From assembly GCA_949493535.1 (NCBI GenBank), contig CASZWJ010000002.1, forward strand, positions 18,287 through 82,286: 64,000 bases of DNA. Reading direction: 5' to 3'. How positions within the stretch are numbered: the stretch's first letter is position 1; every line of letters starts with the position of its first letter. Below the pieces are notes generated by a model. That model searched no databases, had not been told where the DNA came from, and saw only the letters and a program-made list of their open reading frames with translations. The DNA is from an uncultured Alphaproteobacteria bacterium. GTDB lineage: Bacteria; Pseudomonadota; Alphaproteobacteria; RF32; CAG-239. A program made the position numbers and the translations under genes. Positions 10,465-41,546 of this stretch are shown here, one piece after another.

Positions 10465-10542
10465 CATTGTGTAAAAAATAAACAAAATTTAGACAGTGGC
10501 GGCTAATGCTTATATTCTGTTTCTTAGATTAAGGAGCAGGGT

Positions 10543-12198: not shown

Positions 12199-12215
12199 TT
12201 TATAGGAGAAAAGTG

Positions 12216-14905: not shown

Positions 14906-16518
14906 TGCTAAAAAATTACTTTTCCAAAGACCTGATGTTGCTGTTATTATTTCTCACCGGCGGCGGCTTGGTTTCGATGCTGCTTAAATATGAAGTTTTA
15001 TGGGATTTTGCCAATTATCATTATTATAACCCATGGGCTTTTGTGAATAATCGAATCAATTATGATATTGCTGTTGCCGGTATCAACGGTTTTTTTAATC
15101 CGCTGGCAGATATTCCGCTTTATTATCTGATAGAATATTTTAACGATTATCCGAATTTAATTTATTTTGCGCAGGGTTTATGGTTTGGCGCCTTAGGTTT
15201 TATCATTTTTAAAATTGCCGGATTATTTTTTGCAGACATGCGTCCGGTTTTATTGGTTTTGCTGCTGGGGCTGAGCGGTTATGCGGTATTCTTTCAAATA
15301 GGAACGAGTACTAATGAAATCATGATAAGTTGTTTTTTGTTGTTCAGCCTTTATCTGATTTTAAGGATATTGGGCAAAAAAAGCGAAGCCGGCAGCCGTT
15401 TGTTTTTTGCCTCAGGAATAATGTCCGGAGTGGCACTGGGATTGAAGCTGACAGCAATCATTTATTGTATTGGTTTGGGAGCAGGCTTAATTTTCTTTTA
15501 TAAGAAAATACCGCATCCGGTTGAAAATATTTTGATGTTTGCTCTGGGCGGTTTATCCGGATTTTTGTTGATTGATGGTTTCTGGCTGTGGAAAATGTGG
15601 GAACTGTTTGGCAATCCGTTATATCCGTATGCTAATAAGATTTTTCAATCGGAATATTTTGAGATCAGAAATTATACGGATGGCCGTTTTCTTCCGCAAA
15701 CTTGGGCAGAATATGTGTTTTGGCCTTTTTATTGGGCTGTCAGAACCAGCCATCCGGCTGATCAGGCTGTCGTTATTGATTTTCGCTGGGGCATTTTATC
15801 CGTATTGGCGTTTGTTGCGGCCGGCAAAGGAGTTGCACTAAAATCAAAACCTGCGGATACAACTGCTTTTTTAATTGTTTTTACGGTGTTGTCTTATTTT
15901 GTGTGGGTTAGTTTTTTTGCAATCCGGCGGTATATGATTCTGCTGGAGATATGCGGTATGCTGCTGTCTGTAAAAGCCGTTATATTTTTAGTTCCTAAGA
16001 AGCGAAAAAAGCTTTATTTCTTTTTTATTTCCATATTATTTTTGGTGGCGATGCTGACGCCTGTTTTGTCACAGAAATGGGGCGGCCGCATTTTCAGCGG
16101 CGAAAAAGAGGCTTTTGACCGCTTTGTTGCGGTTGACGGTGTCAAAATACCGGATAATACGCTGTTGATGTTTTATAATTATCCTTCAGCGGCATTGCTT
16201 CCTTATTTTTCCAGAACGGCGGAAAATATCCGCGGCGTTTCAATCCGGCAAAAAAGTTATTTTGCGGCCGACGGCGAAGAAGACGTTTTTAATGCCAATA
16301 CAAAATGGCGCAGAAAAAAGGCCGAAGCAATCCTTTTGCATAAGGGGCTGAAAGTTGCCGTGATTTCAAGAGAAAATGCCGATACGGTAAAAAAAATGCT
16401 TGAAACGGAATTTTTGTTAAAAGGTATGTTTTGTTGGCAAAAGCGCAGCAATATTGTTCCGGGATTGTATTTTTGTGTTCGGCCTGATAAGCAACAGGAG
16501 ATTTTTGCCGGTGAATGA
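14902..16518 (+). CDS. Polytopic GT-C-like glycosyltransferase, paralog 4
   Basis: Same motif set; ATGA overlap with the paralog 3 stop. Confidence 0.72.
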   Translation: MMLKNYFSKDLMLLLLFLTGGGLVSMLLKYEVLWDFANYHYYNPWAFVNNRINYDIAVAGINGFFNPLADIPLYYLIEYFNDYPNLIYFAQGLWFGALGFIIFKIAGLFFADMRPVLLVLLLGLSGYAVFFQIGTSTNEIMISCFLLFSLYLILRILGKKSEAGSRLFFASGIMSGVALGLKLTAIIYCIGLGAGLIFFYKKIPHPVENILMFALGGLSGFLLIDGFWLWKMWELFGNPLYPYANKIFQSEYFEIRNYTDGRFLPQTWAEYVFWPFYWAVRTSHPADQAVVIDFRWGILSVLAFVAAGKGVALKSKPADTTAFLIVFTVLSYFVWVSFFAIRRYMILLEICGMLLSVKAVIFLVPKKRKKLYFFFISILFLVAMLTPVLSQKWGGRIFSGEKEAFDRFVAVDGVKIPDNTLLMFYNYPSAALLPYFSRTAENIRGVSIRQKSYFAADGEEDVFNANTKWRRKKAEAILLHKGLKVAVISRENADTVKKMLETEFLLKGMFCWQKRSNIVPGLYFCVRPDKQQEIFAGE

Positions 16519-26642: not shown

Positions 26643-28352
26643 TTATTTTGATTTTCCGCCGTTGCCGTTGATTATTTGTGCTATGCGGTTTTGTACTTCT
26701 TTTTCTGCTTCTTTTATGTAATTTAATATTCTTTTTTCAATTTCATCGGGCAGAGGGGAGTATTGCGACCCTTTTATGTTGCTGTATTTGGTATTATTGT
26801 TATAGTTAAGGCAAATATATTCGTTTCTGTCTTTGTCATATTTGCAACAAACGCTTGGTTGGGCATATCGGTAGGTTGTCAATTTTATGCAGTTGGGGCG
26901 CCCTGACGAATGCAGTGTTTGAGCTTTTATTGTTATCGGTTCTCCTCTGCGGTTTTTGCTTTTGAATGAAATTCCCTGTTCAAGAAGCTGTTCCCGAAGT
27001 TTTTGATGCGAATGTATTTTAAATGGTTCCTGATATGTTTCGTTAAACAAAGACAGAATCAATTTCAGGCCAATGCCGTTTTGTTTGAGGGTATTTAATC
27101 TTTGCCGGCGTATTGTTTCTGCCAGCTCAATGTTTTTGCGTTCGGCGTCTCTGACAAAGGTCGGAATTTGAATGAATTTTGAAAGGTCTTGTTTTTCCAT
27201 TTTTCCGGTTTGCGGATTATAAACGTCCATTGTGTAAGCGCAGGCGCGGCGGGCAAGATATTCTTCATCTCCGTCTTCCATGCGCAGGACGGGGGCATTC
27301 CAAGCATGGCTGAGGGTTAATTCGCATCTTTGGCCGATATAATGGCCGGCATAGTTTTGGTTCCAGTTTTTAATATTGCCGTTGACGATGAAATTATTGT
27401 TTAGCAAAATTTTTTTTTGTTCGCTAAAGCTCAGTCCTTTTATTGTATTAACCAACCATTGGCATTTGTTGGGAAAAACGCTTAAATCTCCGCCGTTCTG
27501 AAAAAATTTGGCGATAGCCAGGCAGGTTTCTCGCAAATGTGCCGCTTTTTCATTATCCTCGTCAAAACGGTAAAAATTGGTTGGCGAAAGTTCTTTATGG
27601 TTTGGCTGTTTGCGGCGTTGGTTTATTCTTTGTTGCGTTTGGGCATGTTGCAGTTCGTGGCTGGCGGAATAAAGCTTTTGATTTTTATCTAAATAGTGTT
27701 CGGATATATTGCAATAAAAATCATATAAGGCGCGTATCTGCGGGGATTGCGCGCTTAAAACATCTTTCGACGGATGTTGTCTGACAAGCTGATTAATTTT
27801 TTTTATCGCTTCAACTTCTTGAGGGGTAAAGAAGAATGCTTTATCATAGAGGGTGACTTCCATTCTTTTAAGATTGAAAGAAGCCCTTTGCGAATTTATT
27901 TTTATTTCATTTCCGTGTTCGTTACGGCAAACATAGCATTGTTTTTTTTCATCATATTTAGGAAAGTAATATTCTTCTTCCCGTCGCAGCGGAACCGGGC
28001 AATCATTATAATCAGAGGGCAGATCAGCTGATTTGATTGTATAATGCGAATAGCAATGGCGGCGTCCGGTGCGTTGAGATATCTCTAAAACATGTTTTCT
28101 GAAATCTGTATCGTCTGCCAGTTCATTTGTTGGTTTTCCAATTGAGGGAATATCTTGTCTTATCTCTCTCATCAGAGCGCGGGTGAGCGGGGTATCCGCT
28201 TTGGGAAATTTTTCTTTGAATATAAAAACAGCCTCAATTTTGGGGTCATTATAATCAGCAGCTTTACAGCGGCTTACTTCGTCGGCAGTTAAGGAGACAT
28301 CGTCTTTGAAAGCAACATAATAGCCGGAATTTGTTTTTAAAACTTTTACCAT
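26643..28352 (-). CDS. Hypothetical protein with HExxH motif (possible zincin)
   Basis: 569 aa ORF, SASHELQHA followed by DNEKAA. Confidence 0.6.
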   Translation of the reverse strand: MVKVLKTNSGYYVAFKDDVSLTADEVSRCKAADYNDPKIEAVFIFKEKFPKADTPLTRALMREIRQDIPSIGKPTNELADDTDFRKHVLEISQRTGRRHCYSHYTIKSADLPSDYNDCPVPLRREEEYYFPKYDEKKQCYVCRNEHGNEIKINSQRASFNLKRMEVTLYDKAFFFTPQEVEAIKKINQLVRQHPSKDVLSAQSPQIRALYDFYCNISEHYLDKNQKLYSASHELQHAQTQQRINQRRKQPNHKELSPTNFYRFDEDNEKAAHLRETCLAIAKFFQNGGDLSVFPNKCQWLVNTIKGLSFSEQKKILLNNNFIVNGNIKNWNQNYAGHYIGQRCELTLSHAWNAPVLRMEDGDEEYLARRACAYTMDVYNPQTGKMEKQDLSKFIQIPTFVRDAERKNIELAETIRRQRLNTLKQNGIGLKLILSLFNETYQEPFKIHSHQKLREQLLEQGISFKSKNRRGEPITIKAQTLHSSGRPNCIKLTTYRYAQPSVCCKYDKDRNEYICLNYNNNTKYSNIKGSQYSPLPDEIEKRILNYIKEAEKEVQNRIAQIINGNGGKSK

Positions 28353-28496
28353 TTCTTTCCCTCTTTATCTTTTACTATACTGTAAAATAGACAAAAATAC
28401 AAGGCTTGAAAATTAAGTAAAATCAAGGTTTGATTTTGCTTGATTATTCGTTGCCAGCCGTTAATATATCTGAAAATGAATTTATGAGAGGTGCCG

Positions 28497-29414
28497 ATGA
28501 AAGTCGTATTTATGGGAACGCCGGATTTTGCGGTTCCGGTTTTGGAAAATCTTGTTAAAGAACATGAGGTCATCTGCGTTTATACGAGAGCGCCGAAGGA
28601 AGCGGGCAGAGGTCAAAAAGAGAGCAAGACGCCGGTGCATTTGAAAGCGGAAGAACTCGGCATAGAGGTTCGGACGCCCAAAACTCTGCGCAACGAGAAA
28701 GAACAGGCTCAATTTAAGGCGCTGGATGCCGATGTCGCGGTTGTGGCGGCCTATGGTTTGATTTTGCCGAAACCTGTGTTGGAGGCTTTTCCGAAAGGCT
28801 GTTTGAATACGCATGCCTCCCTGTTGCCGCGTTGGCGCGGAGCGGCGCCCATTCAGCGGGCGATTGAAGCCGGAGACGAAAAGTCCGGCGTGACGATTAT
28901 GCAAATGGACGAGGGGCTTGATACCGGAGATATGCTTTTAAAAGGCGAGGTCGAAATTACCGATACGACAACCGGCGGCGAACTGCATGACGCTTTGTCT
29001 GTCATCGGAGCTGATTTGATTATGGAAGCATTGCGCAATATTGACAATTTGCAAGCCGAAAAGCAGACGGAAGAGGGAACATGCTATGCGGCAAAAATCG
29101 AAAAGGAAGAGAGCCGTTTGGACTTTTCATTGCCGGCAATTGTTTTGGAGAGAAAAATCAGAGCTTTTAACCCTTTTCCCGGAACGTATTTTGAATATAA
29201 CGGCGAAAGATTTAAAGTGTGGGAAGCGGAGGCTTTTACCGAAGTTTCCGGATATGCGCCGGGAACAATTATTCCCAATGATGCCGGTTTGTTAATTGCC
29301 TGCGGCGAAGGAATGCTTTTGGTTACAAAAATCCAACGGCAGGGCAAAAAAGCGATGGCTATTGAGGAGTTGCTGCGCGGTTTTGAATTTGAAGCGGATA
29401 CGCTTGTTTCTTAA
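28497..29414 (+). CDS. fmt: Methionyl-tRNA formyltransferase
   Basis: FMGTPDFA, HASLLPRWRGAAPIQ, GLDTGD. Confidence 0.98.
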   Translation: MKVVFMGTPDFAVPVLENLVKEHEVICVYTRAPKEAGRGQKESKTPVHLKAEELGIEVRTPKTLRNEKEQAQFKALDADVAVVAAYGLILPKPVLEAFPKGCLNTHASLLPRWRGAAPIQRAIEAGDEKSGVTIMQMDEGLDTGDMLLKGEVEITDTTTGGELHDALSVIGADLIMEALRNIDNLQAEKQTEEGTCYAAKIEKEESRLDFSLPAIVLERKIRAFNPFPGTYFEYNGERFKVWEAEAFTEVSGYAPGTIIPNDAGLLIACGEGMLLVTKIQRQGKKAMAIEELLRGFEFEADTLVS

Positions 29415-29420
29415 TACAGG

Positions 29421-29452
29421 AAAATCCCCGGAAACTTCCGGGGATTTTTTTT
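29421..29452. terminator. Terminator between fmt and RTX gene
   Basis: AAAATCCCCGGA-aact-TCCGGGGATTTTTTTT. Confidence 0.85.
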
Positions 29453-29456
29453 GAGG

Positions 29457-32400
29457 TTAAGCAATTTTGTTTTGGGGCGGGAAGAGTTTATCAGCAGAGC
29501 TGAGGTCAATAATTGTTCCGTCTGCAAGTTCTAGATTTTCGACCATATAACCATTCCAGTTGTATTGTTGATAGATTGAAACTCCTTGTGTTTTTTCGGC
29601 ATCAACATAAATATTCAATGTATCGCCTCTGCGTTCAAAGGTTAAATTACTGCGCGTAATTCCTTCGCCCATCCGGACTGTATCGTTGCCATCCTGTTCT
29701 TTAATGGTGTCAAAACCGTCTCCGAGGTTATAAATATATGTATCATTTCCATAGTTGCCATATAATTTGTCATCTCTCGGTCCGCCGACAATAATGTCAT
29801 TGCCACCGCCGCCGGATAGGCTGTCATTGCCGCCGTTTCCATAGATGATGTCATTGTATTCGGTTCCGGTCATTGCGTCATCGGCGTCTGTTTGGTTGAA
29901 AAACAAACCTTCTTCTTTAAGCGAAATTGTTGTTCCGTCATTTAATTCGACATATTCAATATTGTTTGTGTTAAAATTGTTGTATAAAATTACGCCTTGA
30001 GTGAAGTCGTTTTTAACATAGATATAAAGCGTGCCGCTATATGAACCTCCTTTAACAAAACGCAGGTCGTCTTTAGTGATACCGGGGCCAAATTTTATTC
30101 TGTCATTCGTACCGTTGCTATCTTGAATGGTATCTAAACCGTCACCTAAGTTCCAAATGTATGTATCATTGCCGTAGCCGCCTTCAAGTTGGTCGTCTCC
30201 GGTGCCGCCGATAATGATTTCATCTGCATTGGAGCCATAAATTTTGTCATTGCCGCCCATACCGAAAATCGTGTCTCCGTTGCCGGTTGCATAAATTGTT
30301 TCGTCTGCATCCGTTTGAATTAATGTCAGCGGCATGTCGGATAAATGATAAATACTGCCGTCGGCAAAGGCTAAATCATTAACCCTGTCTCTCCCCCACA
30401 TAAATCCTGAAATTCTGATTGTTTGGTTGGGATCATTTTTGACCGTAATCTGTAAGCCGTTTCCGTTGTATGCCGAAAAAGTTAAGTCTTCGAAAGAAAT
30501 ACCTTCTCCAAACAAGATTTTATCTTTATCATGTGAGGCGTAAATGAAATCACAGCCATCGCCCAGATTGTAAATATAAGTTTTGTTTCCGTTGGTACTG
30601 GTGATTTCGTCATTGCCGGGGCCGCCAATGATAATATCATTTCCTGCGCCTGAACGGATTACGTCGTCGCCGCCGTTAGCGATAATCAAATCGTCACCGG
30701 CGCTGTCTACAATCCAATCATAACCGTCTCCGCCTATGATTGTGCGGCCGCCAAGTGCATTAGGAACAAGATTATGATGGGCATAAACATATTCAACATC
30801 CCATGAAGTTCCGTCGGTAAAAGTTATGGCATTGACTGTGGCGGAAGTTGTTCCTGCTTTATCAAAATAACTCAAGATACGGATAGAGTCGTCAGTTTGT
30901 TCTGAGCCGGCGTATTTGACGGTTAAAATTAAATCAAAACCTTCACGGGAGATTGTAACCATGTCGGGAGAGATGCCTTCGCCAAACTGAACAATATCCG
31001 GTTCATCTGCAGATGCGTTATCATCTGTGTTATCAATGGTATCATGTCCGAAGCCCGGTTCAAAGACATAAGTATCGGCACCGTTGCCGCCGTTCAGATA
31101 GTCATTGCCGTTTCCTCCGATGAGCGTGTCGTTGCCGTCTTCTCCCCAGAGAGAATCGTTGCCGTTTCCTCCGATGAGCGTATCGTCTCCTTTGCCGGCA
31201 TAGATTGTGTCATTGCCGTCTTCGCCGGAGATGACGTCCATATTGTCAGAGCCGGTTAAATTATCATCATTTGCAGTTCCTACCACATCGGCAAAAGTTG
31301 TCAGCAATACGGACATACCTTCACCTTCGGCGTTTCCGGCAGCTTTGAATGTGGCAATAATATCTTGGGTTGTCTCCGTGTTTTGCTTTTTGATTAATTG
31401 GCCGAATTCTGTTAAAGTCAAAGCGCCGTTAAGGGCATTGGCATTATAGATTTTCTGCAGTTTGGCAACGGCACCGGAAACGTCAATGTTCCAAGCAGAA
31501 TTTTCGGTGTTCCATTCCAATTTGACATTTTCCAAGAGCGGTTTGTAGTGGGTTTGCGCCAGCAATTCATGATTGATATATTCCTGCAAGATATCAAAAG
31601 CTCTGATGATGTAAGGCGCGGCTTTGCCATGCGGGTTGGGGTCCCGGTCTCCCCAGCACCATGTGCCCAGAAACTCTTCTCCCATGAATTCTTCAAGCGC
31701 TTCCAATTTGCGGGTATCGTCAATTACTTTACCATAGTTTCTGGTAGGATCACGTCCGTTTGGCGACATATTCTGTACGCCGGTCCAATGATAAATAAGG
31801 TTCAGTAAAATGCTTTTTCTGGCAGCAACGTTTGTTTCTGCAATGAAGTCTTCAACCAAGGCTTTCAACTCGCCGGTTTCATCCAGAGCCATAGCGCTGT
31901 GCAAGTCATGCACATTGCCGAATGCCCGCACGTTTGGCAGAGCTTTTATCTCTTCGGGAATTTCAACGGAAACGCGGTTGACCGTATCTGAAAAATCTGC
32001 ATTGAACCACACATCGTTAATGCTTCCGATTGTTTCGGAAGTGTTTGTAAACGAGCCGGTCTGCTTGTGGGCATTGTCATTTTCATCAACGATTGTACTG
32101 TTTTGATAGTTGAGGTTGATGTTTTTAATATTAGCTTGTTCTAATGTAATAAGTTCACCATTATCAACCAAGCCGTTTTGGTTGGAATCCTTCCAGACTT
32201 TGACTTCGTTCCAAGCAGCGTCAGAAGCGTTGAAAACGCCGTCGGAATTGCTGTCTAAGTCTTTCAGGGCTTCAAACCCGTTGGCGGCTTTTTTGCCGTT
32301 GGAAAGAACGGTATTATTGCCGAAGAGTTCGGAACCGTTGTCAATCTGCCCGTTGTTGTTGAGGTCTCTGACGAGCAGGCCGTCATCTTGTCCGACCCAG

Positions 32401-33014
32401 CCGGTTCTTTCGGCAAAGCCGTTGCCGTCATGGTCAAAATAAACGCCGTTTGCCGCCGAAACGGTTTCCACGCCGTCACCGTCCAAATCCACAATCAAAG
32501 GCGAGGGGGTTTTTTTACTTGTTCTGAATAGCGGATTTAGTAATTTCCTTAACATAACTTGTAGGCTGAGACCAAAAAATCGATGAATTAGGAGAGCAAT
32601 ACCAATAGCAGCACCTAATTGCCAGCAAACAAATACTGAAAAAATTATTGTTACAACTGCTAACCCAAAGATTTTTTCATCGCTCATTCTGTATTTGCTC
32701 ATCATTTTTGTTGTTTGTAAATTTAATGAGTTGCCGACATATTGGTATAAATGAGAAACTAATTTGTTTGTTTCTAATTCATCAAGAAACATTTGGTTTA
32801 CTTCTTTTATATAAGCCAAATCGGTTCTTTCATTTATTCCAGATAATAATTCAAATAGCTTGGGATTATAAGTAGGTCCTTGTTCTCTACAGATATTTAA
32901 TATTCCAGTTAAAAATTCGTTTGAATATATTCTTTGAGCTTCTGTTTCTGAAATACCTATAGAAATAGCAGCGCTTATTAATGTTTCTTTTAATTCATTT
33001 ATATTATCGTTCAT
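29457..33014 (-). CDS. RTX Ca2+-binding protein: variable N-terminal domain, FrpC-type self-processing module, GGxGxD repeat blocks
   Basis: PLIVDLDGDGVET...FDHDGNGFAERTGWVGQDDGLLVRDLNNNGQIDNGSELFG matches my recollection of the FrpC SPM; many GGNGND/GGTGDD nonapeptides and YNLGDGxD repeats. Confidence 0.9.
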   Translation of the reverse strand: MNDNINELKETLISAAISIGISETEAQRIYSNEFLTGILNICREQGPTYNPKLFELLSGINERTDLAYIKEVNQMFLDELETNKLVSHLYQYVGNSLNLQTTKMMSKYRMSDEKIFGLAVVTIIFSVFVCWQLGAAIGIALLIHRFFGLSLQVMLRKLLNPLFRTSKKTPSPLIVDLDGDGVETVSAANGVYFDHDGNGFAERTGWVGQDDGLLVRDLNNNGQIDNGSELFGNNTVLSNGKKAANGFEALKDLDSNSDGVFNASDAAWNEVKVWKDSNQNGLVDNGELITLEQANIKNINLNYQNSTIVDENDNAHKQTGSFTNTSETIGSINDVWFNADFSDTVNRVSVEIPEEIKALPNVRAFGNVHDLHSAMALDETGELKALVEDFIAETNVAARKSILLNLIYHWTGVQNMSPNGRDPTRNYGKVIDDTRKLEALEEFMGEEFLGTWCWGDRDPNPHGKAAPYIIRAFDILQEYINHELLAQTHYKPLLENVKLEWNTENSAWNIDVSGAVAKLQKIYNANALNGALTLTEFGQLIKKQNTETTQDIIATFKAAGNAEGEGMSVLLTTFADVVGTANDDNLTGSDNMDVISGEDGNDTIYAGKGDDTLIGGNGNDSLWGEDGNDTLIGGNGNDYLNGGNGADTYVFEPGFGHDTIDNTDDNASADEPDIVQFGEGISPDMVTISREGFDLILTVKYAGSEQTDDSIRILSYFDKAGTTSATVNAITFTDGTSWDVEYVYAHHNLVPNALGGRTIIGGDGYDWIVDSAGDDLIIANGGDDVIRSGAGNDIIIGGPGNDEITSTNGNKTYIYNLGDGCDFIYASHDKDKILFGEGISFEDLTFSAYNGNGLQITVKNDPNQTIRISGFMWGRDRVNDLAFADGSIYHLSDMPLTLIQTDADETIYATGNGDTIFGMGGNDKIYGSNADEIIIGGTGDDQLEGGYGNDTYIWNLGDGLDTIQDSNGTNDRIKFGPGITKDDLRFVKGGSYSGTLYIYVKNDFTQGVILYNNFNTNNIEYVELNDGTTISLKEEGLFFNQTDADDAMTGTEYNDIIYGNGGNDSLSGGGGNDIIVGGPRDDKLYGNYGNDTYIYNLGDGFDTIKEQDGNDTVRMGEGITRSNLTFERRGDTLNIYVDAEKTQGVSIYQQYNWNGYMVENLELADGTIIDLSSADKLFPPQNKIA
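32044..32510 (-). repeat. SPM-coding repeat copy A (inside the full-length RTX gene)
   Basis: Near-identical to 36440-36884 and homologous to 34289-34756. Confidence 0.95.
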
Positions 33015-33018
33015 TATA

Positions 33019-33945
33019 TTAGTCCTTTTTTGTTAATCTATAGTCATATGATAAGGCAATTTTCCTTATTAGTGCATGTAAGAATGCTGCAACATAGAAT
33101 AATACAAAAAAAACATAGATAGATATCCCTATTAATATTAATATATCTGTTCCGTCGAATACTTTTCCTAAGTGACTATAAACATTAGGAAGAGCTATGA
33201 CGAATATTGTACTCATTAAAATTATGATTAGGGTCAAAAATAGCGGAATACCTTTTAGTTTGTCTTGAATTACTACCGTTTCATATGAATAATTAATGTT
33301 ACTAAATATTGTAAAAAATGAAGAAAAGAAAATAATTAAAAGTAGAAAGTTTAAATAAATATTGGGGCTGAATGGAACCTTCAATGTTATGTCTGATACG
33401 AAACTCTCTAAGATGTTATTAGAAGAAGAACTTTTTAGTATATGTAAACTGAATGTAAAAATGCTGCAGATAATAACTACAATAAAAATACGTTTTAAGA
33501 TATGTTTTATTGTTTGTATTATAATATTTTTAATCAATTTTTTATCATCATATTTGGCTATTAACTTAAATATTTCGCCAGGTTGCAGTGCTTGGGTTAT
33601 ACTGCTTAATCGGAGTAAGGGTTTGTTAAAACCCATGAAGATTAAAACTGTGAAAAATGATGTTAGTACAAGCATTGCTTTTGCTGCAGGGATATTTTGA
33701 TTAAAAGCTAATAATTGGATTATTCCAATATATATGATGCCCAAAATACATAATGTTTTATAAAACCAACCATTTGTTGTTTTGTTTTCTATTTTAGATA
33801 ATATTTTTTTGATTGGGTTTTTATCAGAAAGCTTATGTGAAACTCTTGTTTTAAAAAAATTCATAATAGCTTCATTAAAGTATTGAGGAAACATATATTC
33901 TAATCTGAAGTTTTCTATAGTTCTTTTCTTTTCTTCTTTTGACAT
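33019..33945 (-). CDS. AT-rich polytopic membrane protein (candidate immunity protein, cassette 1)
   Basis: About 6 hydrophobic segments; stop 4 nt before the RTX start. Confidence 0.7.
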   Translation of the reverse strand: MSKEEKKRTIENFRLEYMFPQYFNEAIMNFFKTRVSHKLSDKNPIKKILSKIENKTTNGWFYKTLCILGIIYIGIIQLLAFNQNIPAAKAMLVLTSFFTVLIFMGFNKPLLRLSSITQALQPGEIFKLIAKYDDKKLIKNIIIQTIKHILKRIFIVVIICSIFTFSLHILKSSSSNNILESFVSDITLKVPFSPNIYLNFLLLIIFFSSFFTIFSNINYSYETVVIQDKLKGIPLFLTLIIILMSTIFVIALPNVYSHLGKVFDGTDILILIGISIYVFFVLFYVAAFLHALIRKIALSYDYRLTKKD

Positions 33946-33955
33946 AAATCTGTCC

Positions 33956-34190
33956 TTTCTAATAAAAATTGAATATAAAAATTTTATAGAATAATATCCT
34001 TGGTGGCAATTAAAAGTTTTTAATCTTGATTTATTAAAACTAAAGTTCTAGTTCTTAAAAGTGGACTTACTGTTCTATAATTTAGCCAAGTAAATTCTTT
34101 TTAGTTGCTAACAAATATAAATATAGGAAATAAATCCTAATTTTACAATAGAAAGTAGCATTCTATCCACAACTATTATTTGTGTTTAAT
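33956..34190 (-). promoter_or_regulatory. Cassette leader 1: sigma70-like promoter and ~170-nt 5'UTR
   Basis: TTGTAA (34148-34143)-17 nt-TATATT (34125-34120); homologous to 36109-36339. Confidence 0.7.
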
Positions 34191-34288
34191 TGTTTTTAGT
34201 ATACTTAAATCCTCGAAAATAAAATTAGTTTTTTCTAACATAATATCGGAGAATATAGATTATTTCATAAAACGGATATTGTTATTAT

Positions 34289-34756
34289 TTTTGCAGATGT
34301 GCCAATTTGTTTATGAGCATTGTCATTTTCATCGACAGTTTTACTGTTTTGATAGTTCAGATTGATGTTTTTAACATTAGCTTGTTATAATGTAATAAAT
34401 TCGCCATTATCAACTAAGCCGTTTGGGTTGGAATCCTTCCAGACTTTGACTTCGTTCCAAGCGGTGTCAGAAGAATTGAAAATGCCGTCGGAATTGCTGT
34501 CTAAATCTTTCAGGGCTTCAAATCCGTTGGCGGCTTTTTTGCCGTTGGAAAGAACGGTATTATTGCCGAAGAGTTCGGAACCGTTGTCAATCTGCCCGTT
34601 GTTGTTGAGGTCTCTGACGAGCAGGCCGTCATCTTGTCCGACCCAGCCGGTTCTTTCGGCAAAGCCGTTGCCGTCATGGTCAAAATAAACGCCGTTTGCC
34701 GCTGAAACGGTTTCCACGCCGTCACCGTCCAAATCTACAATCAAAGGCGAGGGAGT
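34289..34756 (-). repeat. SPM-coding repeat copy B
   Basis: Near-identical to copy A over 34524-34753, more diverged over 34289-34523; GAA>TAA at 34385-34387. Confidence 0.93.
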
Positions 34757-35227
34757 AACGCTTGCCGTTTCAACAAGCTTTTTGATTTTAGGAACGTTAT
34801 TTTTAGGTTGTTGATTAATGTCACTACCATTTAATATTGGGAATACCTCTTTATTTTCATCTAGAATTTCAGTATCCCTTTCTGTTATACCTCCTAGGAT
34901 AAGGGGAATATCATATTCAACATTAATCTCAATGACACCGTAAAGACCACTAGCTTGTAAATAAATGACAAAAGGTGGTAGCGTTGTGGGTTTTGAAATT
35001 GTTATATCTATAGGAGTTGTTGCACCTCCGGCAAGATAATCTTTCATAAGTTTTTTCTTTCCGTCGTCCCAATAAACAGTAGTTATAGAAACATTTTTTG
35101 TATGATCTCCTGTTGCAGATATATTTACAGATGCTCGAAAAGGTTTTCCGGGTGTGGTAAAAATTGGGGCAGTCAGTTTTGCATCATTAGGTAACAAACC
35201 TCCCAGTTTAAATATAGTATTTGCCAT
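34385..35227 (-). CDS. Orphan cassette: alternative N-terminal domain fused to a truncated SPM
   Basis: About 158 unique aa, then TPSPLIVDLDGDG...; ends at a premature stop. Confidence 0.8.
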   Translation of the reverse strand: MANTIFKLGGLLPNDAKLTAPIFTTPGKPFRASVNISATGDHTKNVSITTVYWDDGKKKLMKDYLAGGATTPIDITISKPTTLPPFVIYLQASGLYGVIEINVEYDIPLILGGITERDTEILDENKEVFPILNGSDINQQPKNNVPKIKKLVETASVTPSPLIVDLDGDGVETVSAANGVYFDHDGNGFAERTGWVGQDDGLLVRDLNNNGQIDNGSELFGNNTVLSNGKKAANGFEALKDLDSNSDGIFNSSDTAWNEVKVWKDSNPNGLVDNGEFITL

Positions 35228-35249
35228 TTTTTTCCTTTCTTGGTTAAAA

Positions 35250-35660
35250 TTAAGGAAAAGGTTGGCCGGTAATTAAGATTTTGAAAGTTTGGCAAATTGA
35301 TTCACAAAATAAATTATAAGACCAACAATTTCCTAAATATGAAAATAAAGTGTAAGGTCTTCTATAGATAAAACTTGTTATTATTAAGCTGCTGATAAAG
35401 TAGACAAAGAGCATTTTTTGTGTCTTTTTATAAAATGTCTTATTTACTTTTTTAGCATTGTTCAGCACAAGCTTAAAATCATATATGAAGAAAGTTAATA
35501 GGAACAAATTCCGTAAAAAAACGTAGAGCAAGAATATATCTCTTGAATTAAAACGGAAATGATTGCTGAATATTATTCCGCATAGGAATTGTGGAAGCAC
35601 AAAGAATAATACAAGCTTCAGATAAAACTTAAATTTTGGGGTTGATAACTGATTATACAT
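35250..35660 (-). CDS. Small AT-rich membrane protein (candidate immunity protein, cassette 2)
   Basis: AGGAG before ATG 35660 (MYNQL); ~3 TM segments and a C-terminal Cys cluster. Confidence 0.65.
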   Translation of the reverse strand: MYNQLSTPKFKFYLKLVLFFVLPQFLCGIIFSNHFRFNSRDIFLLYVFLRNLFLLTFFIYDFKLVLNNAKKVNKTFYKKTQKMLFVYFISSLIITSFIYRRPYTLFSYLGNCWSYNLFCESICQTFKILITGQPFP

Positions 35661-36087
35661 TATTGTTCTCCTGATGCTGTATTGGAATATAATTTCTGAC
35701 ATCGTATTGGAATGTGTCATACTTTGTTCCGGTGTAAATATCGCTGCATGCAAAGGCAAAGGGCGAACAGTAATGAAACCAGCTCAAAACAAATACAAAC
35801 AAAACATAATACATGCCTAAGAAAGTTTTTAGCAGTTTCTTATATTTGACAATATCAATGTCTTTATACAAGATGTTGAATGAATAAATTGCATATCCGA
35901 GGCAGATGAAGTTTTGTGTTGGTTCATATAATATCAGTAATTTTATCGGAAAACTTTGCGGCAGTTTATGTTGCTCCATAAACGGGTAAACAACATCGTA
36001 ACTGAAAACCTCAAGTAACCCGATAATTATTCCTCCCAGGACAAATATTATCCAAAAATCAATCCAAAATTTTTTGTTTTGTGTCAT
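35653..36087 (-). CDS. Small AT-rich membrane protein (candidate immunity protein, cassette 2)
   Basis: About 3 TM segments, CSPFAFAC; overlaps the next start. Confidence 0.65.
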   Translation of the reverse strand: MTQNKKFWIDFWIIFVLGGIIIGLLEVFSYDVVYPFMEQHKLPQSFPIKLLILYEPTQNFICLGYAIYSFNILYKDIDIVKYKKLLKTFLGMYYVLFVFVLSWFHYCSPFAFACSDIYTGTKYDTFQYDVRNYIPIQHQENNNV

Positions 36088-36108
36088 CGTATGCTTCCTA
36101 TAACGGAT

Positions 36109-36339
36109 TTTCTATTAAAAATTGAATATAATAATTTTATAGAATAAATTTTTTTATCGCAACTAAAAGTTTTTCTGGAGATGAGGCTTTGAACTAAATT
36201 TTATATCATGCAAAGGTTTGCTGTTCTTTATTTTAGTTCAGCTCATTTTTTTAGCTGCTTACAGATATAAATATAGGAAATAAATCCTAATTTTGCAATA
36301 GAAAGCAGTGTCTTATCCACAACTTTTATTTGTATTAAT
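36109..36339 (-). promoter_or_regulatory. Cassette leader 2: sigma70-like promoter and ~175-nt 5'UTR
   Basis: TTGCAA (36298-36293)-17 nt-TATATT (36275-36270); 30 nt identical to 34115-34144; TTATCCACA at 36313-36321. Confidence 0.7.
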
Positions 36340-36414
36340 GGTTTGGGGTTTGTGTTTAATTAAAATATACTAAATTAGTATTTATTGATATACATTCGGT
36401 ATAAAGAGATTATC

Positions 36415-36884
36415 TTATAAAGAAGCTGTTGTTGTTATTTTTGTAAACGAGCCGGTCTGCTTGTGGGCATTGTCATTTTCATCAACGATTGTACTGTTTT
36501 GATAGTTGAGGTTGATGTTTTTAATATTAGCTTGTTCTAATGTAATAAGTTCACCATTATCAACCAAGCCGTTTTGGTTGGAATCCTTCCAGACTTTGAC
36601 TTCGTTCCAAGCAGCGTCAGAAGCGTTGAAAACGCCGTCGGAATTGCTGTCTAAGTCTTTCAGGGCTTCAAACCCGTTGGCGGCTTTTTTGCCGTTGGAA
36701 AGAACGGTATTATTGCCGAAGAGTTCGGAACCGTTGTCAATCTGCCCGTTGTTGTTGAGGTCTCTGACGAGCAGGCCGTCATCTTGTCCGACCCAGCCGG
36801 TTCTTTCGGCAAAGCCGTTGCCGTCATGGTCAAAATAAACGCCGTTTGCCGCTGAAACGGTTTCCACGCCGTCACCATCCAAAT
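36415..36884 (-). pseudogene. Headless SPM fragment (repeat copy C)
   Basis: 36440-36884 matches 32044-32488 with 2 mismatches seen; in-frame TAA 12 codons upstream, no N-terminal domain. Confidence 0.85.
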
Positions 36885-36939
36885 TTAGAGGCTTATTGTA
36901 TTTAATGGCAATATGTTAAGTCTGGATGAGTTTGTCTGT

Positions 36940-36975
36940 AAAAAAAATCCCCGGAAGTTATCCGGGGATTTTTTT
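36940..36975 (-). terminator. Terminator of the S8 peptidase gene
   Basis: AAAAAAAATCCCCGGA-agtta-TCCGGGGATTTTTTT. Confidence 0.85.
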
Positions 36976-39900
36976 AATTGAGCGGGGCGCCGAAGCCCAA
37001 CATTATTCGGTAATCGGGGGTGACATCGCGATTATCCGGATTGATTCTTGTTCCAAATTCGGCACGGAACCATTTATCTTCTTCTGTCTCATGTGTGAAG
37101 TATAGTCCTAAGTCAATCTCCCGGGCTTCAGGTTTGAGTTTCAGATTATATTTTTCTCTGTATATAATATCTTCTTTCGGATCTCGTCCGACAGGCAAAT
37201 CAAAGAGCATGCTGCCTCGGTTGATTGTCAGCGGCTGGGCTATTTGCAGCCCCAGTTTAGCTTCTTGATTAAGTTTATACGCAATGTCAAGCGAGATGCT
37301 TTCGCTTTTAATGTCGGACAGGGACATCAGCGTATTTGATTTGGCTTTGCGGGTTTGGGTTCGTCCTTGGTAATATGCTGCGGTAATGCTCAAATCATCA
37401 ACCGGCATTAATCCGATTTCTAAACCGAAATAATTGGTCAGACTGTTCTCCGTTGCAAAAGCGCCGGAGCCGTTCATGCCCAAAACGGAACCGTCTTCCT
37501 GCAAAAAACCGCCTTTGAAGCCAAAGGTTACATAATCTGCCGGTGTGAAATTGAAGACATAGTCAATGGCATTAAACTCGTTGTCATTTTGCAATTTTAA
37601 GCGCTGATCGTCATTATAGAAACCGTTTTTACCGGTATAGACGGCAACATCAAAACTCAGTTCCTGATTGAATTTGTATGCGCTTTTAATACCGAATGCT
37701 TCGTTCATATTCAGGAACGGGTTGCTTGTTGCTTTAGAAAAATAGTCGCCGTTTTTATAAGCGGTATTTTCGCTGAAAAAGAATCCGACGCTGGTATCTT
37801 TGTCAACCATATAGTCGAAGGCAAAAGAGCCGAGCTGCATATTGTCAACAGGATCGCTGATTCTGTTTGAAAAAGACATGGACAAATTGTTATTGACGGC
37901 AATTTTTTGAATTTTGTTGCGATTAGTGAACTGTTTCATGTCGTTTTCAAGTTTTTTATTATGATTGCTTGTGGTGAACAATGATTTTGTTTCCAGCGGA
38001 TAAGGGCGTTCATATTTATCAAGGAAAATCATTTGTTGCGGCAGTTTTTCAATAATGTTGGCCATGTTGTACGGAACGGCAATTTTTGAATGGCTCAGTG
38101 CGACGGATGCACCGCTGACTGTATCTTCCGTCGGAACTTCAAAAACGCCGAGAGGCATTGTTGCCGCCTCAAGGTTGACCAGACCGTGCCCATAAATTTC
38201 ATCAACGCCGGGAGCGCCCAAATCGGTTGCCGTTTCAAACAAAATATGGACAGCTTGCTGCGGCGTTAAATTGGGAAATGCGCTCATTATCATGGCCAAG
38301 CTTCCGCTTACAACCGGAGCGGCCATGGATGTTCCCGCTAATCCGGCAACGGTATTTTCCCCATAGGTTGATTTAATCGGGTGGTCTTCCGTTCCGCCCG
38401 GCGCCGCAATGCACCAATTGGCGGCAGAGCCGCATTTGTTGGAATAGCTTGCAAGATTGTTATTTTGATCTACTGCGACAACAGAAACAAATAAACCGTC
38501 AGCAGAAGTTACTTCTTTGGGAATAGCTGAAAAAACACCGGACTCGTCTTTGCCTTCATTTCCTGCAGCCACCACGAGGATGCGCCCTTTGTTGAAAAAT
38601 GTATCAAGATTAGTATGCTGATTAAAATAGTCTCCATAATTTTGGGCATTCAGGTCTTCTCTCCAACCGGGGCCCAAGCTCATATTGACGATTTGAATAT
38701 CTTGGTTTTTCGAATCCATCATATTGCCAAAGTCTTCAATCGTACTGTTTATCAAGCCTATATGTGTATCAATATTGCCGAATTGATTGTAGATGAACGG
38801 AAGTAAACCTACATTTTGAACAACGCCCTGAGTAAGGCCGCCAATCGGTTTGGCTCCGATAATTCCTGCGACATGCGTTCCATGTCCGTTTATTTCGTTG
38901 GGGTCATAGCCTTCCGGCGCATCGGCCTGCGGACCGTTTATATAATGGGGTGTCGTGTCTGTGACTTTCCAGACATAATCGCTTGAAAAGTGGGAAATAT
39001 AAGTATTCCATGTTTCCTGCGACATACTGCCGACTTCTTGAAGCGGCTGTCCTGCGCCGTTTTGCAGCATAAGCTTTCCTTTGGTTGCGTCAAAAGAATA
39101 GCACATTGTTTTGTTGACGCCGGAGCAGGGGCCGAAGTCGAAATTAAAACCAAAGACTCCGCCGCCGTTTTCTTCCGTGAACTTAACGATATTGTCTTTC
39201 AGTTTTATATTATTAGCCCAAACGCCGTTGTCATATACGGCGACATTGACTACTTCATCACTGTATGTGTAGTCAACCTCTTGAAGCGTCGGTAAATTTC
39301 CTCCCGGGTGGTATTCTTTAAATTGACGATAGACTTTGCGGCCGTCGTAACCGCGGGCGTAAGCGGCCGGTGCATTGATTTGTTCCAGAAAACCGCTGCC
39401 GATGACCTGTTCTGTTTTGTAATCGTCAGGATTTCCGTTTGCGGGGTGAGCCATCAGATATATGTTACTGGTTGGTGATACTTCAACATCGGTCCATTGT
39501 ATATCACCGTCACCGCCGCCGGGGTTGTTACTGCCGCCACCGCCGCCGCTGCCGGCTAAGACAGCAACTGCCATACCGGTCATCAGGGCCGTTGTTCCGA
39601 ATGTTTGCATTCTGGGGGTGAAAAAAGTTTTCTTTTCCGTCGGATTTAAGAAAGCATATCTGTCATATCCCGGTTGATTCTCAAAAAAGGCATTGCGGTA
39701 ACGCGGGCTCATGCGGCGCAGGCAGGGCGGGTTAGGGTCTGCGCTCATATTGCGCAGCAGATTATAGCCGTCATAGTCTTTCTGATAAATCGCATGGCAA
39801 AGGGAATTGATGCCGTTAGAATCAGGAGAATCAATCCAGACACCGTTGGTGACGGCATTTTTCAAGCCGGCAACATCTTTGGCTTTCATAAAACCGTAAA

Positions 39901-39997
39901 TGATTCTGAATTCATAATTGCTGCTTTGGGCGAGGGTGTTTCCCGCATATAAAAAGACAGTCAGCGCGGCTAAAATGCCTTTGTAAAAATTTTTCAT
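36974..39997 (-). CDS. Subtilisin-family (S8) serine peptidase with probable C-terminal beta-barrel
   Basis: VAVYDNG, NGHGTHVAGIIG, AAGNEG, GTSMAAPVVSG, DLGAPGVDEIYGHGL; signal peptide from MKNFYK. Confidence 0.9.
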   Translation of the reverse strand: MKNFYKGILAALTVFLYAGNTLAQSSNYEFRIIYGFMKAKDVAGLKNAVTNGVWIDSPDSNGINSLCHAIYQKDYDGYNLLRNMSADPNPPCLRRMSPRYRNAFFENQPGYDRYAFLNPTEKKTFFTPRMQTFGTTALMTGMAVAVLAGSGGGGGSNNPGGGDGDIQWTDVEVSPTSNIYLMAHPANGNPDDYKTEQVIGSGFLEQINAPAAYARGYDGRKVYRQFKEYHPGGNLPTLQEVDYTYSDEVVNVAVYDNGVWANNIKLKDNIVKFTEENGGGVFGFNFDFGPCSGVNKTMCYSFDATKGKLMLQNGAGQPLQEVGSMSQETWNTYISHFSSDYVWKVTDTTPHYINGPQADAPEGYDPNEINGHGTHVAGIIGAKPIGGLTQGVVQNVGLLPFIYNQFGNIDTHIGLINSTIEDFGNMMDSKNQDIQIVNMSLGPGWREDLNAQNYGDYFNQHTNLDTFFNKGRILVVAAGNEGKDESGVFSAIPKEVTSADGLFVSVVAVDQNNNLASYSNKCGSAANWCIAAPGGTEDHPIKSTYGENTVAGLAGTSMAAPVVSGSLAMIMSAFPNLTPQQAVHILFETATDLGAPGVDEIYGHGLVNLEAATMPLGVFEVPTEDTVSGASVALSHSKIAVPYNMANIIEKLPQQMIFLDKYERPYPLETKSLFTTSNHNKKLENDMKQFTNRNKIQKIAVNNNLSMSFSNRISDPVDNMQLGSFAFDYMVDKDTSVGFFFSENTAYKNGDYFSKATSNPFLNMNEAFGIKSAYKFNQELSFDVAVYTGKNGFYNDDQRLKLQNDNEFNAIDYVFNFTPADYVTFGFKGGFLQEDGSVLGMNGSGAFATENSLTNYFGLEIGLMPVDDLSITAAYYQGRTQTRKAKSNTLMSLSDIKSESISLDIAYKLNQEAKLGLQIAQPLTINRGSMLFDLPVGRDPKEDIIYREKYNLKLKPEAREIDLGLYFTHETEEDKWFRAEFGTRINPDNRDVTPDYRIMLGFGAPLN

Positions 39998-40079
39998 CGC
40001 CAGATGTTTCCTGATAATATTAGTAATTGAATAAATTATATTTATTATCCTGTGTTTGACAAACAAAACGGGGCTTTTA

Positions 40080-40094
40080 TTAACAGAAGGTTAA
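40080..40094. promoter_or_regulatory. Candidate CtrA-binding box
   Basis: TTAA-CAGAAGG-TTAA between the divergent S8 and glmM genes. Confidence 0.4.
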
Positions 40095-40202
40095 GAAATA
40101 TTGCGAAAAATTATGTGTCTTTATTTTGGCAAAAAAATCTTGAGCTTAGCGTTAATCAATTTATACTGTGATTATTGTAAAAATAAATTTGAGAGGGGTA
40201 TT

Positions 40203-41546
40203 ATGGGAAATAAACTTTTTGGAACTGACGGCGTTCGCGGCGTGGCAAATGTTTATCCGATGACGGCTGATTTTGCAATGAAGTTGGGCAAGGCTTGTGC
40301 CGAAATTGTTTGTACCAAAACGCACCGCGCCGCAATCGGCAAAGATACGCGCATTTCCGGAGATATGCTTGAAGCCGCACTGGCCGCAGGTTTTACGTCA
40401 ATGGGTATTGACGTGGTGCGTTTGGGCGTTTTGCCGACCCCCGCAGTAACGACGGTTACGCCTGAACTGGGTGTCGATATGGCCGTTATGATTACGGCAT
40501 CCCATAATCCTTACAAAGACAACGGCATTAAGCTGATTGCCGCTGACGGGGAAAAGTTTTCCGATGCCGTTACCGCTGAACTGGAAGAAAAAGTCAACGC
40601 TGATGATTTTGCAGCCGGCCCTGATAAAATCGGGCGTATCAGCGATGATGATTCCGCAATTGAAAAATATGTCAAAATTGCGAAATCGACAGCGAAAGGC
40701 AATAATCCGTTAAAAGGACTGAAAGTTGTTCTTGATTGTGCGAACGGCGTATTTTCGGAAATTATGCCCCGTGTTTATAAAGAGCTTGGCGCAGATGTCA
40801 TTGTTATGGCAAATCAGCCTGACGGATTGAATATCAACCGCGATTGCGGTTCTATGCATCCGCAGAAAATGATGGAAAAAGTCAAAGAAGTTAAAGCCGA
40901 TTTGGGTATTGCCGTTGACGGTGACGGAGACCGGATTATTGTTTGCGATGACAAGGGTGAAAAAGTCAACAGCGAACAGATTATCGGATTTTTGGCGCAA
41001 TATATGGACAGTATAGGCCAATTGAACGGCCGTGCCGTTGTTTCGACAATCCTTTCCAACACGGCGTTGGAGCGCTTTGTCAAAGAAAAAGGCATTCCAT
41101 ATTACAGCACGCCGGTCGGCGAACGCCATGTCGTGGCAAAAATGAAAGAAACCGGCGGCGCTGTCGGCGGCGAAGAGTCCGGACATGTCGTGGCTCTGGA
41201 TTATTGCAAATCCGGCGATGCTTTGGTCGTATCGTTGATTTTAAGCGAAGGGCTGCTCAAAAGCGGTAAAAAAATGAGCGAAATTTTTCCGATTTTTGCT
41301 ATGGATCCTTTTGAATTTGTCAGTCCGCGTTTTGAGAGCCGCGAACAGGTTAAGGCGTTAGTTAAGCATGAGAGTATCCTCAAGCTGTTGGAAAACCTTA
41401 ATCAGGAAATGAACGGCGAGGGAAGAATTGTTATTCATCCGTCCGGTACCGAACCTCTTATCCGTATTTGGGTCAGCGGTAAAAATGCCGGAAAAGTGAA
41501 AAAGATTCACACAACTTTAGTTGAAGCTTTTGAGAAATTGAGATAG
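40203..41546 (+). CDS. glmM: Phosphoglucosamine mutase
   Basis: FGTDGVRG, GKDTRISG, ITASHNP, DGDGDR, GGEESGH, SGTEPLIR. Confidence 0.95.
   Translation: MGNKLFGTDGVRGVANVYPMTADFAMKLGKACAEIVCTKTHRAAIGKDTRISGDMLEAALAAGFTSMGIDVVRLGVLPTPAVTTVTPELGVDMAVMITASHNPYKDNGIKLIAADGEKFSDAVTAELEEKVNADDFAAGPDKIGRISDDDSAIEKYVKIAKSTAKGNNPLKGLKVVLDCANGVFSEIMPRVYKELGADVIVMANQPDGLNINRDCGSMHPQKMMEKVKEVKADLGIAVDGDGDRIIVCDDKGEKVNSEQIIGFLAQYMDSIGQLNGRAVVSTILSNTALERFVKEKGIPYYSTPVGERHVVAKMKETGGAVGGEESGHVVALDYCKSGDALVVSLILSEGLLKSGKKMSEIFPIFAMDPFEFVSPRFESREQVKALVKHESILKLLENLNQEMNGEGRIVIHPSGTEPLIRIWVSGKNAGKVKKIHTTLVEAFEKLR

Follow-up and report, generated by a model that had tools for sequence, protein, structure and literature searches.

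A candidate inverted polymorphic effector array joined at an FrpC-type self-processing module in an uncultured alphaproteobacterium

The closest described relatives of the locus reported here are FrpC and FrpA of Neisseria meningitidis, together with FrpD, and ApxIVA. In these proteins a variable N-terminal domain (N-domain) is followed by a self-processing module (SPM), a conserved region and RTX-type repeats (RTX, repeats in toxin). FrpD is the product of a small upstream gene and is specific for the N-domain (PMC5472700). A locus with the same order of parts, and with its partner genes also upstream, lies in the stretch of DNA analysed here (the window), 64,000 nucleotides from an uncultured alphaproteobacterium (GenBank assembly GCA_949493535.1, contig CASZWJ010000002.1, positions 18,287 to 82,286). 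This window array contains one RTX gene, two N-domains with their upstream membrane protein genes, and three copies of the SPM. It departs from FrpC in that the scissile Asp-Pro bond and residue D478 are replaced by Ser-Pro and Asn, its class of partners consists of membrane or ankyrin proteins where FrpD is an outer-membrane lipoprotein, and the window copy of the RTX gene is without a C-terminal tail. We lean towards reading the locus as an inverted polymorphic effector/partner system. By analogy, the most likely roles would be those of a competition effector for the N-domain and of a cognate protective or binding partner for the product of the upstream gene.

A conserved delivery body with a sharply bounded hypervariable end is also the plan of the CdiA-CT/CdiI, Rhs and MafB systems, in which, as here, an adjacent partner co-varies with the variable end and orphan modules keep a conserved piece for recombination (PMC3482391, PMC5472700). 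Those systems are joined at VENN, PT-TG or similar motifs, whereas here the joint is the SPM, the variable domain is N-terminal, the partners and orphans lie upstream and export presumably proceeds through a type I secretion system (T1SS). In the searchable text of a survey of polymorphic toxins the term 'T1SS' occurs 0 times and the RTX proteins mentioned are host-directed toxins; ankyrin repeats are a recognised immunity class there, Imm-ank (PMC3482391). One toxin domain of the Min-Wnt/Lipocone group has been described N-terminal to RTX repeats (bioRxiv 10.1101/2025.01.14.632903), and the Caulobacter CdzC/D system delivers antibacterial proteins through a T1SS and has a linked immunity gene (PMC5380434); the passages of the two papers that deal with these proteins describe no SPM joint, upstream orphan cassettes or partner co-variation. 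Neither SPM-joined upstream orphan cassettes nor a polymorphic-toxin reading of FrpC-like proteins was found in the full-text literature outside subscription papers and supplements. Multifunctional autoprocessing RTX (MARTX) toxins are T1SS-exported repeat proteins with exchangeable effector modules and an autoprocessing domain, and strain repertoires differ through recombination. Their effectors are internal and are freed by a cysteine protease domain inside eukaryotic cells, and the repeat type and size differ. We know of no linked partner or immunity genes, and of no upstream orphan stacks, in MARTX loci. On its sequence, the locus described here is neither a classical clip-and-link SPM protein (no Asp-Pro) nor a classical polymorphic toxin (no C-terminal warhead).

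The evidence that carries our reading comes from related loci, whose 13 N-domains and 22 upstream proteins were compared all against all. A preliminary description of the window had predicted, as its central point, that a stored cassette can come to head the RTX body, and the comparison bears this out: three N-domain families were found in both orphan and active positions. The nearest relatives of the locus are in uncultured Alphaproteobacteria metagenome-assembled genomes. Of 12 other genomes from the genus of the organism, 8 had a match of some kind, with a full-length body only in G001, G003 and G007; a full-length body is also present in 2 genomes of other genera of the same family. The organism itself holds a second, T1SS-linked array on contig C4 (locus L007, G000:C4:14000-33999, 3110-15382), with the order hlyD, hlyB (with a C39-like domain), a 325-aa open reading frame (ORF), an 823-aa orphan ORF, an ankyrin gene whose product carries a signal peptide, and a 1100-aa RTX gene. 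The orphan comprises a large N-domain, some RTX repeats, a proline-rich linker and an SPM stub, and the 1100-aa gene is a complete N-domain 3-SPM-RTX gene in which the conserved C-terminal tail is present. No other copy of any cassette gene was found in the genome. A common grammar, consisting of T1SS genes, partner gene(s), an optional orphan N-domain with SPM stub plus further partner gene(s), and the full gene, recurs in L008, L018, L040 (G001), L041 (G024) and L042 (G007), usually beside hlyBD-type T1SS genes. SPM stubs were found in the window (copies B and C), in the C4 array and in L008, L010, L016, L019, L040 and L041. The stacking of orphans upstream and the N-terminal position of the variable end, both claimed for the window, are seen in the window and in related loci alike.

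N-domains and upstream genes travel together in four of the five families, with 10 cassettes, as had been expected of them; the fifth family is taken up below with the points that weigh against our reading. The N2 family is an orphan in the window, and in L008 (41% identity, E 1e-37) a full-length RTX gene begins with it. Homologues of both small membrane genes are present there too (2a, E 1.5e-12; 2b, E 2.7e-10; 2/2 cassettes), that of 2a in the matching position and that of 2b directly upstream of the RTX gene. The N3 family is active on C4, orphan in L008 and L040 and related to the N-domain of L018, with an ankyrin partner in 4/4. The N1 family is shared by the window and L018, each with a TM308-like partner directly upstream (E 3e-26; 2/2), and the N4 family by L040 and L041 (57% identity), each with a membrane partner of 275 or 283 aa (45% identity; 2/2). 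A degenerate locus of a congener, L043 (G008:C9, 6761-11035), consists of an ankyrin gene, a TM308-like gene, a membrane gene and an 88-aa SPM stub, and is without N-domain and RTX body; its membrane gene is 98% identical to a partner in G001. On sequence, partner genes seem to persist after their effector is gone.

The array in the window is laid out as follows. Coordinates are window positions, and the order is that of the minus strand, starting at the S8 autotransporter gene (36974-40066) and moving in the direction of the plus-strand gene fmt (28491-29414). The array opens with the headless SPM copy C (36415-36884), in which homology begins within 'LDLDGDG' and neither an N-domain nor the junction Pro is present. 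Copy 2 of an intergenic element follows (36109-36336, with D5 at 36109-36174, D4 at 36248-36336 and a promoter-like site from 36162 to 36134), then the partner genes of cassette 2, namely 2a (35653-36087), encoding a 144-aa membrane protein, and 2b (35250-35660), encoding a small membrane protein. A 280-aa ORF (34385-35227) carries N-domain 2 (34757-35227; aa 1-157) and runs into the orphan stub SPM copy B (34290-34756), where the frame is closed by an in-frame TAA after 'GEFITL' and the DNA homology to the other copies extends past this stop. Next come copy 1 of the intergenic element (33956-34186, with D5 at 33956-34021, D4 at 34098-34186 and a promoter-like site from 34009 to 33981) and the partner gene of cassette 1 (33019-33945), encoding a 308-aa polytopic membrane protein with about seven hydrophobic segments. 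The 1185-aa ORF at 29457-33014 then joins N-domain 1 (32502-33014; aa 1-171) to the full-length SPM copy A (31965-32501; aa 172-350; DNA repeat core 32044-32510), a conserved middle region that reaches from the SPM to the RTX repeats and is homologous to relatives (31284-31964; aa about 351-577), and the RTX beta-roll body (29457-31283; aa about 578-1185). All of these features are on the minus strand, and the gene order agrees in every structural statement with the preliminary description.

Gene 2b had been listed as a 169-aa ORF (35250-35759) that overlaps the 144-aa ORF by 107 nt (35653-35759). An ATG at 35660 lies just past the upstream stop, with AGGAG 7 nt upstream of it, and gives a length that fits the L008 homologue; from these features the true start is probably this ATG and the product about 136 aa rather than 169. 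The N-domains 1 and 2 and the membrane ORFs showed no similarity to one another (blastp, best E 1.4-4.5), and their GC content is 26-35%, lower than the genome's 42.5% and than the 44-48% of the SPM and RTX body; they are both unrelated and AT-richer, as had been claimed. A repeated promoter had also been described; what repeats is the intergenic element of about 230 bp, each copy of which has a promoter-like site, and the two sites share one register. This is weak evidence of a promoter given that the AT-rich stretch gave 51 such sites against 25 expected.

The SPM DNA of about 450 bp does occur three times. Copies A (32510..32044) and B (34756..34290) are 93.1% identical over 467 nt, with 32 mismatches, and their homology begins at the T-P-S-P codons at 32510 and 34756, the point from which it had been said to start. 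Copies A (32488..32044) and C (36884..36440) are 99.55% identical over 445 nt and differ at exactly 2 positions, again the number given earlier. The first 230 nt or so of copy B are nearly identical to A and C and divergence builds only towards the 3' end, a gradient that, as a sequence pattern, would be expected from gene conversion between copies; the near-identity of A and C suggests that such conversion was recent. Between B and C the likeness goes further, to a truncated 3' tail and on through the intergenic element; over 791 nt (34737..33956 against 36887..36109) the two are 84.2% identical.

That the repeated module is an SPM of the FrpC type, as proposed from its sequence, was confirmed by phmmer, which aligned 169 residues of copy A (query 14-182) with PDB 6sjw_A (chain 1-171) at E 5.1e-44; in FrpC the SPM takes up residues 415-591. 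The SPM and middle region together are 64% identical to the C4 paralogue and 40-63% identical to relatives. The SPM of FrpC cuts off the N-terminal fragment in a Ca2+-dependent manner and makes Asp-Lys cross-links, and this may not carry over to the array. In FrpC the side chain of Asp414 attacks its own carbonyl and an anhydride forms (PMC7078468), and cleavage is abolished in the D414A mutant (PMC7846742). The junctions of the array are T-x-S/P (a slash marks the joint) and not Asp-Pro: copy A reads 'KKTPS/PLIVDLDGDG' and copy B 'ASVTPS/PLIVDLDGDG', with no Asp among the 10 residues upstream of either joint. The four headed SPM copies of the genome have TPS/P, TPS/P, TRS/P and TSS/P, and Asp-Pro in 0/4; Ser-Pro is a widespread variant of the joint. 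Judged by sequence, the anhydride chemistry cannot apply to a Ser-Pro joint; because the junctions are Ser-Pro and the published mechanism needs Asp, Ca2+-dependent release of the N-domain is not to be assumed. In the alignment with 6sjw, the equivalent of D478 is Asn ('ELFGNNT') and that of D579, an Asp, is kept; both belong to the transient fifth Ca2+ site. In FrpC itself, D478N is reported to reduce cleavage only moderately. Among 192 SPM modules, S/P pairs with N or S at the D478 site in 85 of 94 resolved cases, and D/P with D at that site in 12 of 19. The N-domain in this clade would probably stay attached rather than be clipped off by the Asp-anhydride reaction. A single origin of the Ser-Pro class was considered and rejected: a tree of these 192 modules, a sample biased towards relatives of the query, shows 17 changes between S and non-S, and 42 tips make up its largest near-pure S clade.

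When homologues of the SPM were searched for exhaustively, E <= 1e-3 was reached by 23,904 representative proteins and E <= 1e-30 by 3,614. In the best 150 of the 23,904, a junction motif was recognisable in 137, the first junction being S/P in 86, D/P in 12 and other in 39; the motif of the S/P group is A-E-x-x-x-S/P-L-x-x-D-L-D-G-D-G. Among these best 150, 81 S/P proteins have N-domains of at least 60 aa, which fall into 50 unrelated clusters, 37 of them singletons, while the SPMs of the same 81 proteins are 53-79% identical to the query. As a sequence pattern, such N-domain diversity behind a conserved SPM is that of a polymorphic system. Few of these N-domains have a Pfam match. Those recognised by Pfam elsewhere in the superfamily are Peptidase_M23 (P0107), GH108 with PG_binding_3 (L019), Phage_lysozyme2 (L016) and LysM (P0135, L013), and these distant family assignments, to peptidoglycan hydrolases or binders, point to the bacterial cell wall. 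In L019, on a contig of a Nitrospirae metagenome-assembled genome (3847-15817), five Asp-Pro SPM genes stand in a row, two of them with truncated SPMs, and alternate with small signal-peptide or membrane genes; one N-domain is the GH108 muramidase with peptidoglycan-binding domain. By its gene order, L019 is the Asp-Pro counterpart of the window array. A more distant SPM-like region (25% identity, no junction Pro) occurs in a 624-aa ORF on contig C3 of the organism (G000:C3, about 39500-41400, minus strand), which has an N-terminal membrane anchor and a homologue of the middle region (36% identity). It has counterparts of 560-680 aa in at least 7 congeners; judging from this distribution it appears to belong to the core genes of the genus, and it may be older kin of the mobile family.

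The RTX body matches PF00353 in 6 stretches (E 1.1e-33) and PF06594 (E 2.9e-12). Export by a T1SS through a C-terminal signal had been proposed for it, and this was upheld in one part only: T1SS genes were located in the genome, and the window RTX gene was found to be without the conserved tail. Contig C4 encodes an HlyB-type ABC protein (PF03412, PF00664 and PF00005) and an HlyD_3 protein, and two genes of the TolC family (OEP) lie elsewhere in the genome, away from the C4 array. There are no T1SS genes near the window array, the only ABC exporter of the genome with a C39-like domain being that on C4. A C-terminal tail of about 45 residues is kept in 8/8 relatives compared, including the C4 paralogue, and is absent from the window RTX gene, which ends '...SSADKLFPPQNKIA' before its stop codon; homology ceases at '...SSADKL' and is followed by eight unrelated residues, the stop and the terminator. 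The conserved tail would be the secretion signal; in RTX proteins exported by a T1SS this signal is uncleaved and lies in the last 50 or so residues, and T1SS signals have no defining sequence rule.

The array spans 7.5 kb between fmt and the S8 gene, an interval of 48 bp in congener G003 and of a single 251-aa ORF in the closest congener, G011 (L038, G011:C30, 3975-4730). A terminator hairpin stands at each array border, copy 1 (29421-29452) between the stop codons of fmt and the RTX gene and copy 2 (36940-36975) overlapping the stop of the S8 autotransporter gene. The two copies are near-identical. Exactly two instances of their motif, TCCCCGG-N-CCGGGGA, exist in the 1.72-Mb genome, one at each of these borders; by the S8 stop of G003 and of G011 there is one hairpin, and its sequence is different. 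In sequence the two border hairpins look like a target duplication from array insertion, and on the same evidence the array is an ectopic insertion into the fmt-S8 terminator, cut at both ends. As the insert starts within an SPM and breaks off within the C-terminal region of the RTX gene, it has the look of a piece captured from a larger array, and the three states of the interval suggest that the fmt-S8 gap may be a recurrent insertion site. Export of the window copy is probably poor or lacking altogether, and the copy may have no role other than storing cassettes or may be in decay. Just past fmt, a 569-aa ORF (26643-28352, minus strand) matched no Pfam family at E <= 0.01.

The two N-domains of the window have little in common. 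N-domain 1 has hydrophobic segments at aa 111-129 and 133-151 by hydropathy, a hydrophobic hairpin, and its AlphaFold2 (AF2) model is all-helical with a mean pLDDT of 62; no Foldseek match was found for this low-confidence model (best E 2.1), and no Pfam or NCBIfam hit. It shares an N-terminal subdomain of about 100 residues with N-domain 3 of the C4 array and differs from it beyond that point. No Pfam or NCBIfam family was matched by its 308-aa partner. Small polytopic membrane proteins protect the producers of pore-forming colicins, and by analogy the hairpin would fit a membrane-active effector paired with a membrane-embedded protector. N-domain 2 is modelled by AF2 as a jelly-roll beta-sandwich (pLDDT 70, pTM 0.68), for which the best VIA matches (Z 9.7-9.4, where the stated background is 7-8) were with SID1 ectodomains, a superantigen and GOLD domains. 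Word-index searches with N-domains 1 and 2 against longer proteins found none, and missed the known L008 homologue too; the ESM Atlas returned best values of 0.77 and 0.75 for the two, under the threshold for a lead.

The comparisons support a cassette unit made up of one or two partner genes, the variable N-domain and the 5' part of the SPM, the partners being either polytopic membrane proteins or an ankyrin protein with a signal peptide. In the mechanism that we propose, RecA-type recombination or gene conversion would act at the SPM DNA, the conserved joint, where B matches A almost perfectly over some 180 nt or more. Such an event would set a stored orphan cassette before the single RTX body and replace the expressed N-domain, and the tightly linked partner gene would be carried along upstream with its N-domain, which its product would neutralise or hold. 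The RTX body and the T1SS would then deliver the protein, with the head staying attached in Ser-Pro members. The variable domain would be N-terminal because the T1SS signal occupies the C-terminus. The canonical locus of the genome would be the C4 array beside hlyB and hlyD, the window copy having been inserted in the fmt-S8 terminator.

Several observations weigh against this proposal. Neither N-domain 1 nor N-domain 2 matched a toxin family in Pfam, NCBIfam, Foldseek or VIA; of the earlier idea of a warhead with its immunity gene, the co-variation with upstream genes stands and the toxin and immunity roles are putative. Among the 58 S/P proteins scanned, there was no hit to the Ntox or Tox families, M23 was found in 1 and LysM in 2. 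The structural matches of N-domain 2 are weak and generic (Foldseek TMq at most 0.47), and the modelled fold would be a generic one, of the binding-module kind. The combination of a Ser-Pro junction with Asn at the D478 site, as read from the sequence, argues against self-release. In the large 'upN' family, made up of three cassettes with N-domains about 30% identical, the upstream genes have detectable homology in 0/3 pairs. No recombinant junction was observed directly. The DNA identity between stub and full SPM copies is 95% in L008 and only 80-83% in three other loci, and recombination is on this account not equally likely in all loci. Finally, as its RTX gene has lost the tail of about 45 residues and is unlinked to a T1SS, export of the window copy through a C-terminal signal is doubtful on the sequence, and the copy may for the same reasons do nothing.

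Other explanations differ in how much of the array they take to be real and working. The triple repeat might be a mis-join or a duplication of one SPM copy by the assembler, given that the A and C cores are the same except at 2 positions and that the contigs of all four runs compared break at the repeat, but we regard this as extremely improbable. Contigs of 19 public runs, drawn from 11 studies, contain the locus stretch; where these runs carry an organism label, it is mouse gut metagenome. Contigs of 4 of the 19 (X7, X11, X13 and X16) were compared with the array. In X7, X11 and X13, three runs not flagged as possible sources, every unique segment was matched with 0 differing letters in the pieces listed. 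Their contigs stop where the repeat core begins or ends (about 32073/32460, 34401-34455/34706-34919 and 36469/36847), and in each the core has three distinct 3' flanks and three distinct 5' flanks. Copy B is moreover separable from A by its 32 mismatches, and the architecture of stub plus full copy is found in at least 5 other independently assembled genomes. The array is not an artefact of one sample's assembly, and the pairing of A and C flanks is not provable from short contigs because the two cores are nearly identical. Run X16, one of six runs with about half of the locus words, covers 28000-32073 and 34831-36469 at about 98% and has no cover over 32563-34317, which is cassette 1. This gap would be compatible with a strain whose RTX body carries N-domain 2; with no bridging contig listed, it is no evidence of one. 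Unlikely, though to be taken seriously, is that the window array is an inert relic, a random captured fragment that is neither expressed nor exported and is decaying. Both its ends are cut within functional units, the SPM being left headless at one and the RTX gene tail-less at the other; the frame of copy B is closed by a stop, the sole exporter with a C39-like domain is encoded on C4 and congeners have an empty site. A decaying fragment would, however, have to be squared with the intact long ORFs of 1185, 308, 280 and 144 aa, with the agreement of the three independent runs, with the paired +1/-1 indels 7 nt apart in the X16 variant, which would restore the frame, with the recent gene conversion suggested by A and C and with the promoter-like sites kept in both copies of the intergenic element.

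If the array does work, it might do so in adhesion rather than competition, with a variable binding head held or presented by the upstream protein, as in FrpC/FrpD-like anchoring, and with switching as antigenic or binding variation under pressure from host antibody, phage or receptor. In Neisseria the upstream-encoded FrpD binds the N-domain of FrpC with a Kd of about 0.2 nM and an adhesin has been proposed (PMC5233953, PMC5472700), and the N-terminal variability of FrpC-like proteins has been ascribed possibly to immune pressure (PMC5472700). The jelly-roll model of N-domain 2 resembles binding modules, and a non-cleaving Ser-Pro joint would tether such a head to the RTX stalk. We nevertheless consider adhesion quite unlikely: the partners here are polytopic membrane or periplasmic-type ankyrin proteins and not surface lipoproteins, superfamily N-domains elsewhere include peptidoglycan hydrolases, and strictly linked, co-varying partners with stored orphans are the signature of toxin and immunity. 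Classical RTX cytolysins have N-terminal hydrophobic pore-forming domains, and with its two hydrophobic helices N-domain 1 could be the pore of a cytolysin directed at host or protist, the upstream membrane proteins then serving export, folding or activation as accessory factors in place of immunity; the run records place the organism in the mouse gut. This seems very unlikely to us, as neither an RTX-toxin acyltransferase nor a family of pore domains was hit, the match to NCBIfam RTX_toxin is confined to the repeat region (181 bits against a cut-off of 1000) and the other N-domains are not hydrophobic. Nor need accessory factors co-vary with unrelated N-domains or be stored with orphans.

Our preferred reading, that of a polymorphic effector/partner system turned end for end, would reach beyond this genome. 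To our knowledge, polymorphic toxins are known for the type V, VI and VII secretion systems and for Sec-dependent routes, and in all of them the warhead is C-terminal. In a T1SS version it has to sit at the opposite end, and the locus family shows what would go with this, namely upstream partners, upstream orphans and a conserved internal joint. We tentatively suggest, as a bolder possibility that we hold with clearly less confidence than the reading of the locus itself, that SPM-joined N-terminal cassettes form a widespread, unrecognised class of T1SS-linked polymorphic effector-immunity systems, with thousands of protein clusters across phyla, and that FrpC and FrpD are an effector-immunity pair and not an adhesin. 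The SPM would then do double duty, as a DNA recombination joint and as a site of Ca2+-triggered release (Asp-Pro) or a permanent tether or differently processed joint (Ser-Pro). If this is true, the 3,614 representative clusters at the stricter threshold offer a large set of unannotated N-domains and partners for study, and FrpC and FrpD, whose role has stayed unclear, gain a testable function. It would also make one ask what function a 'self-processing' module has when its joint is Ser-Pro, a matter that bears on the uses of SPMs in protein engineering, and would show how commensal gut Alphaproteobacteria compete.

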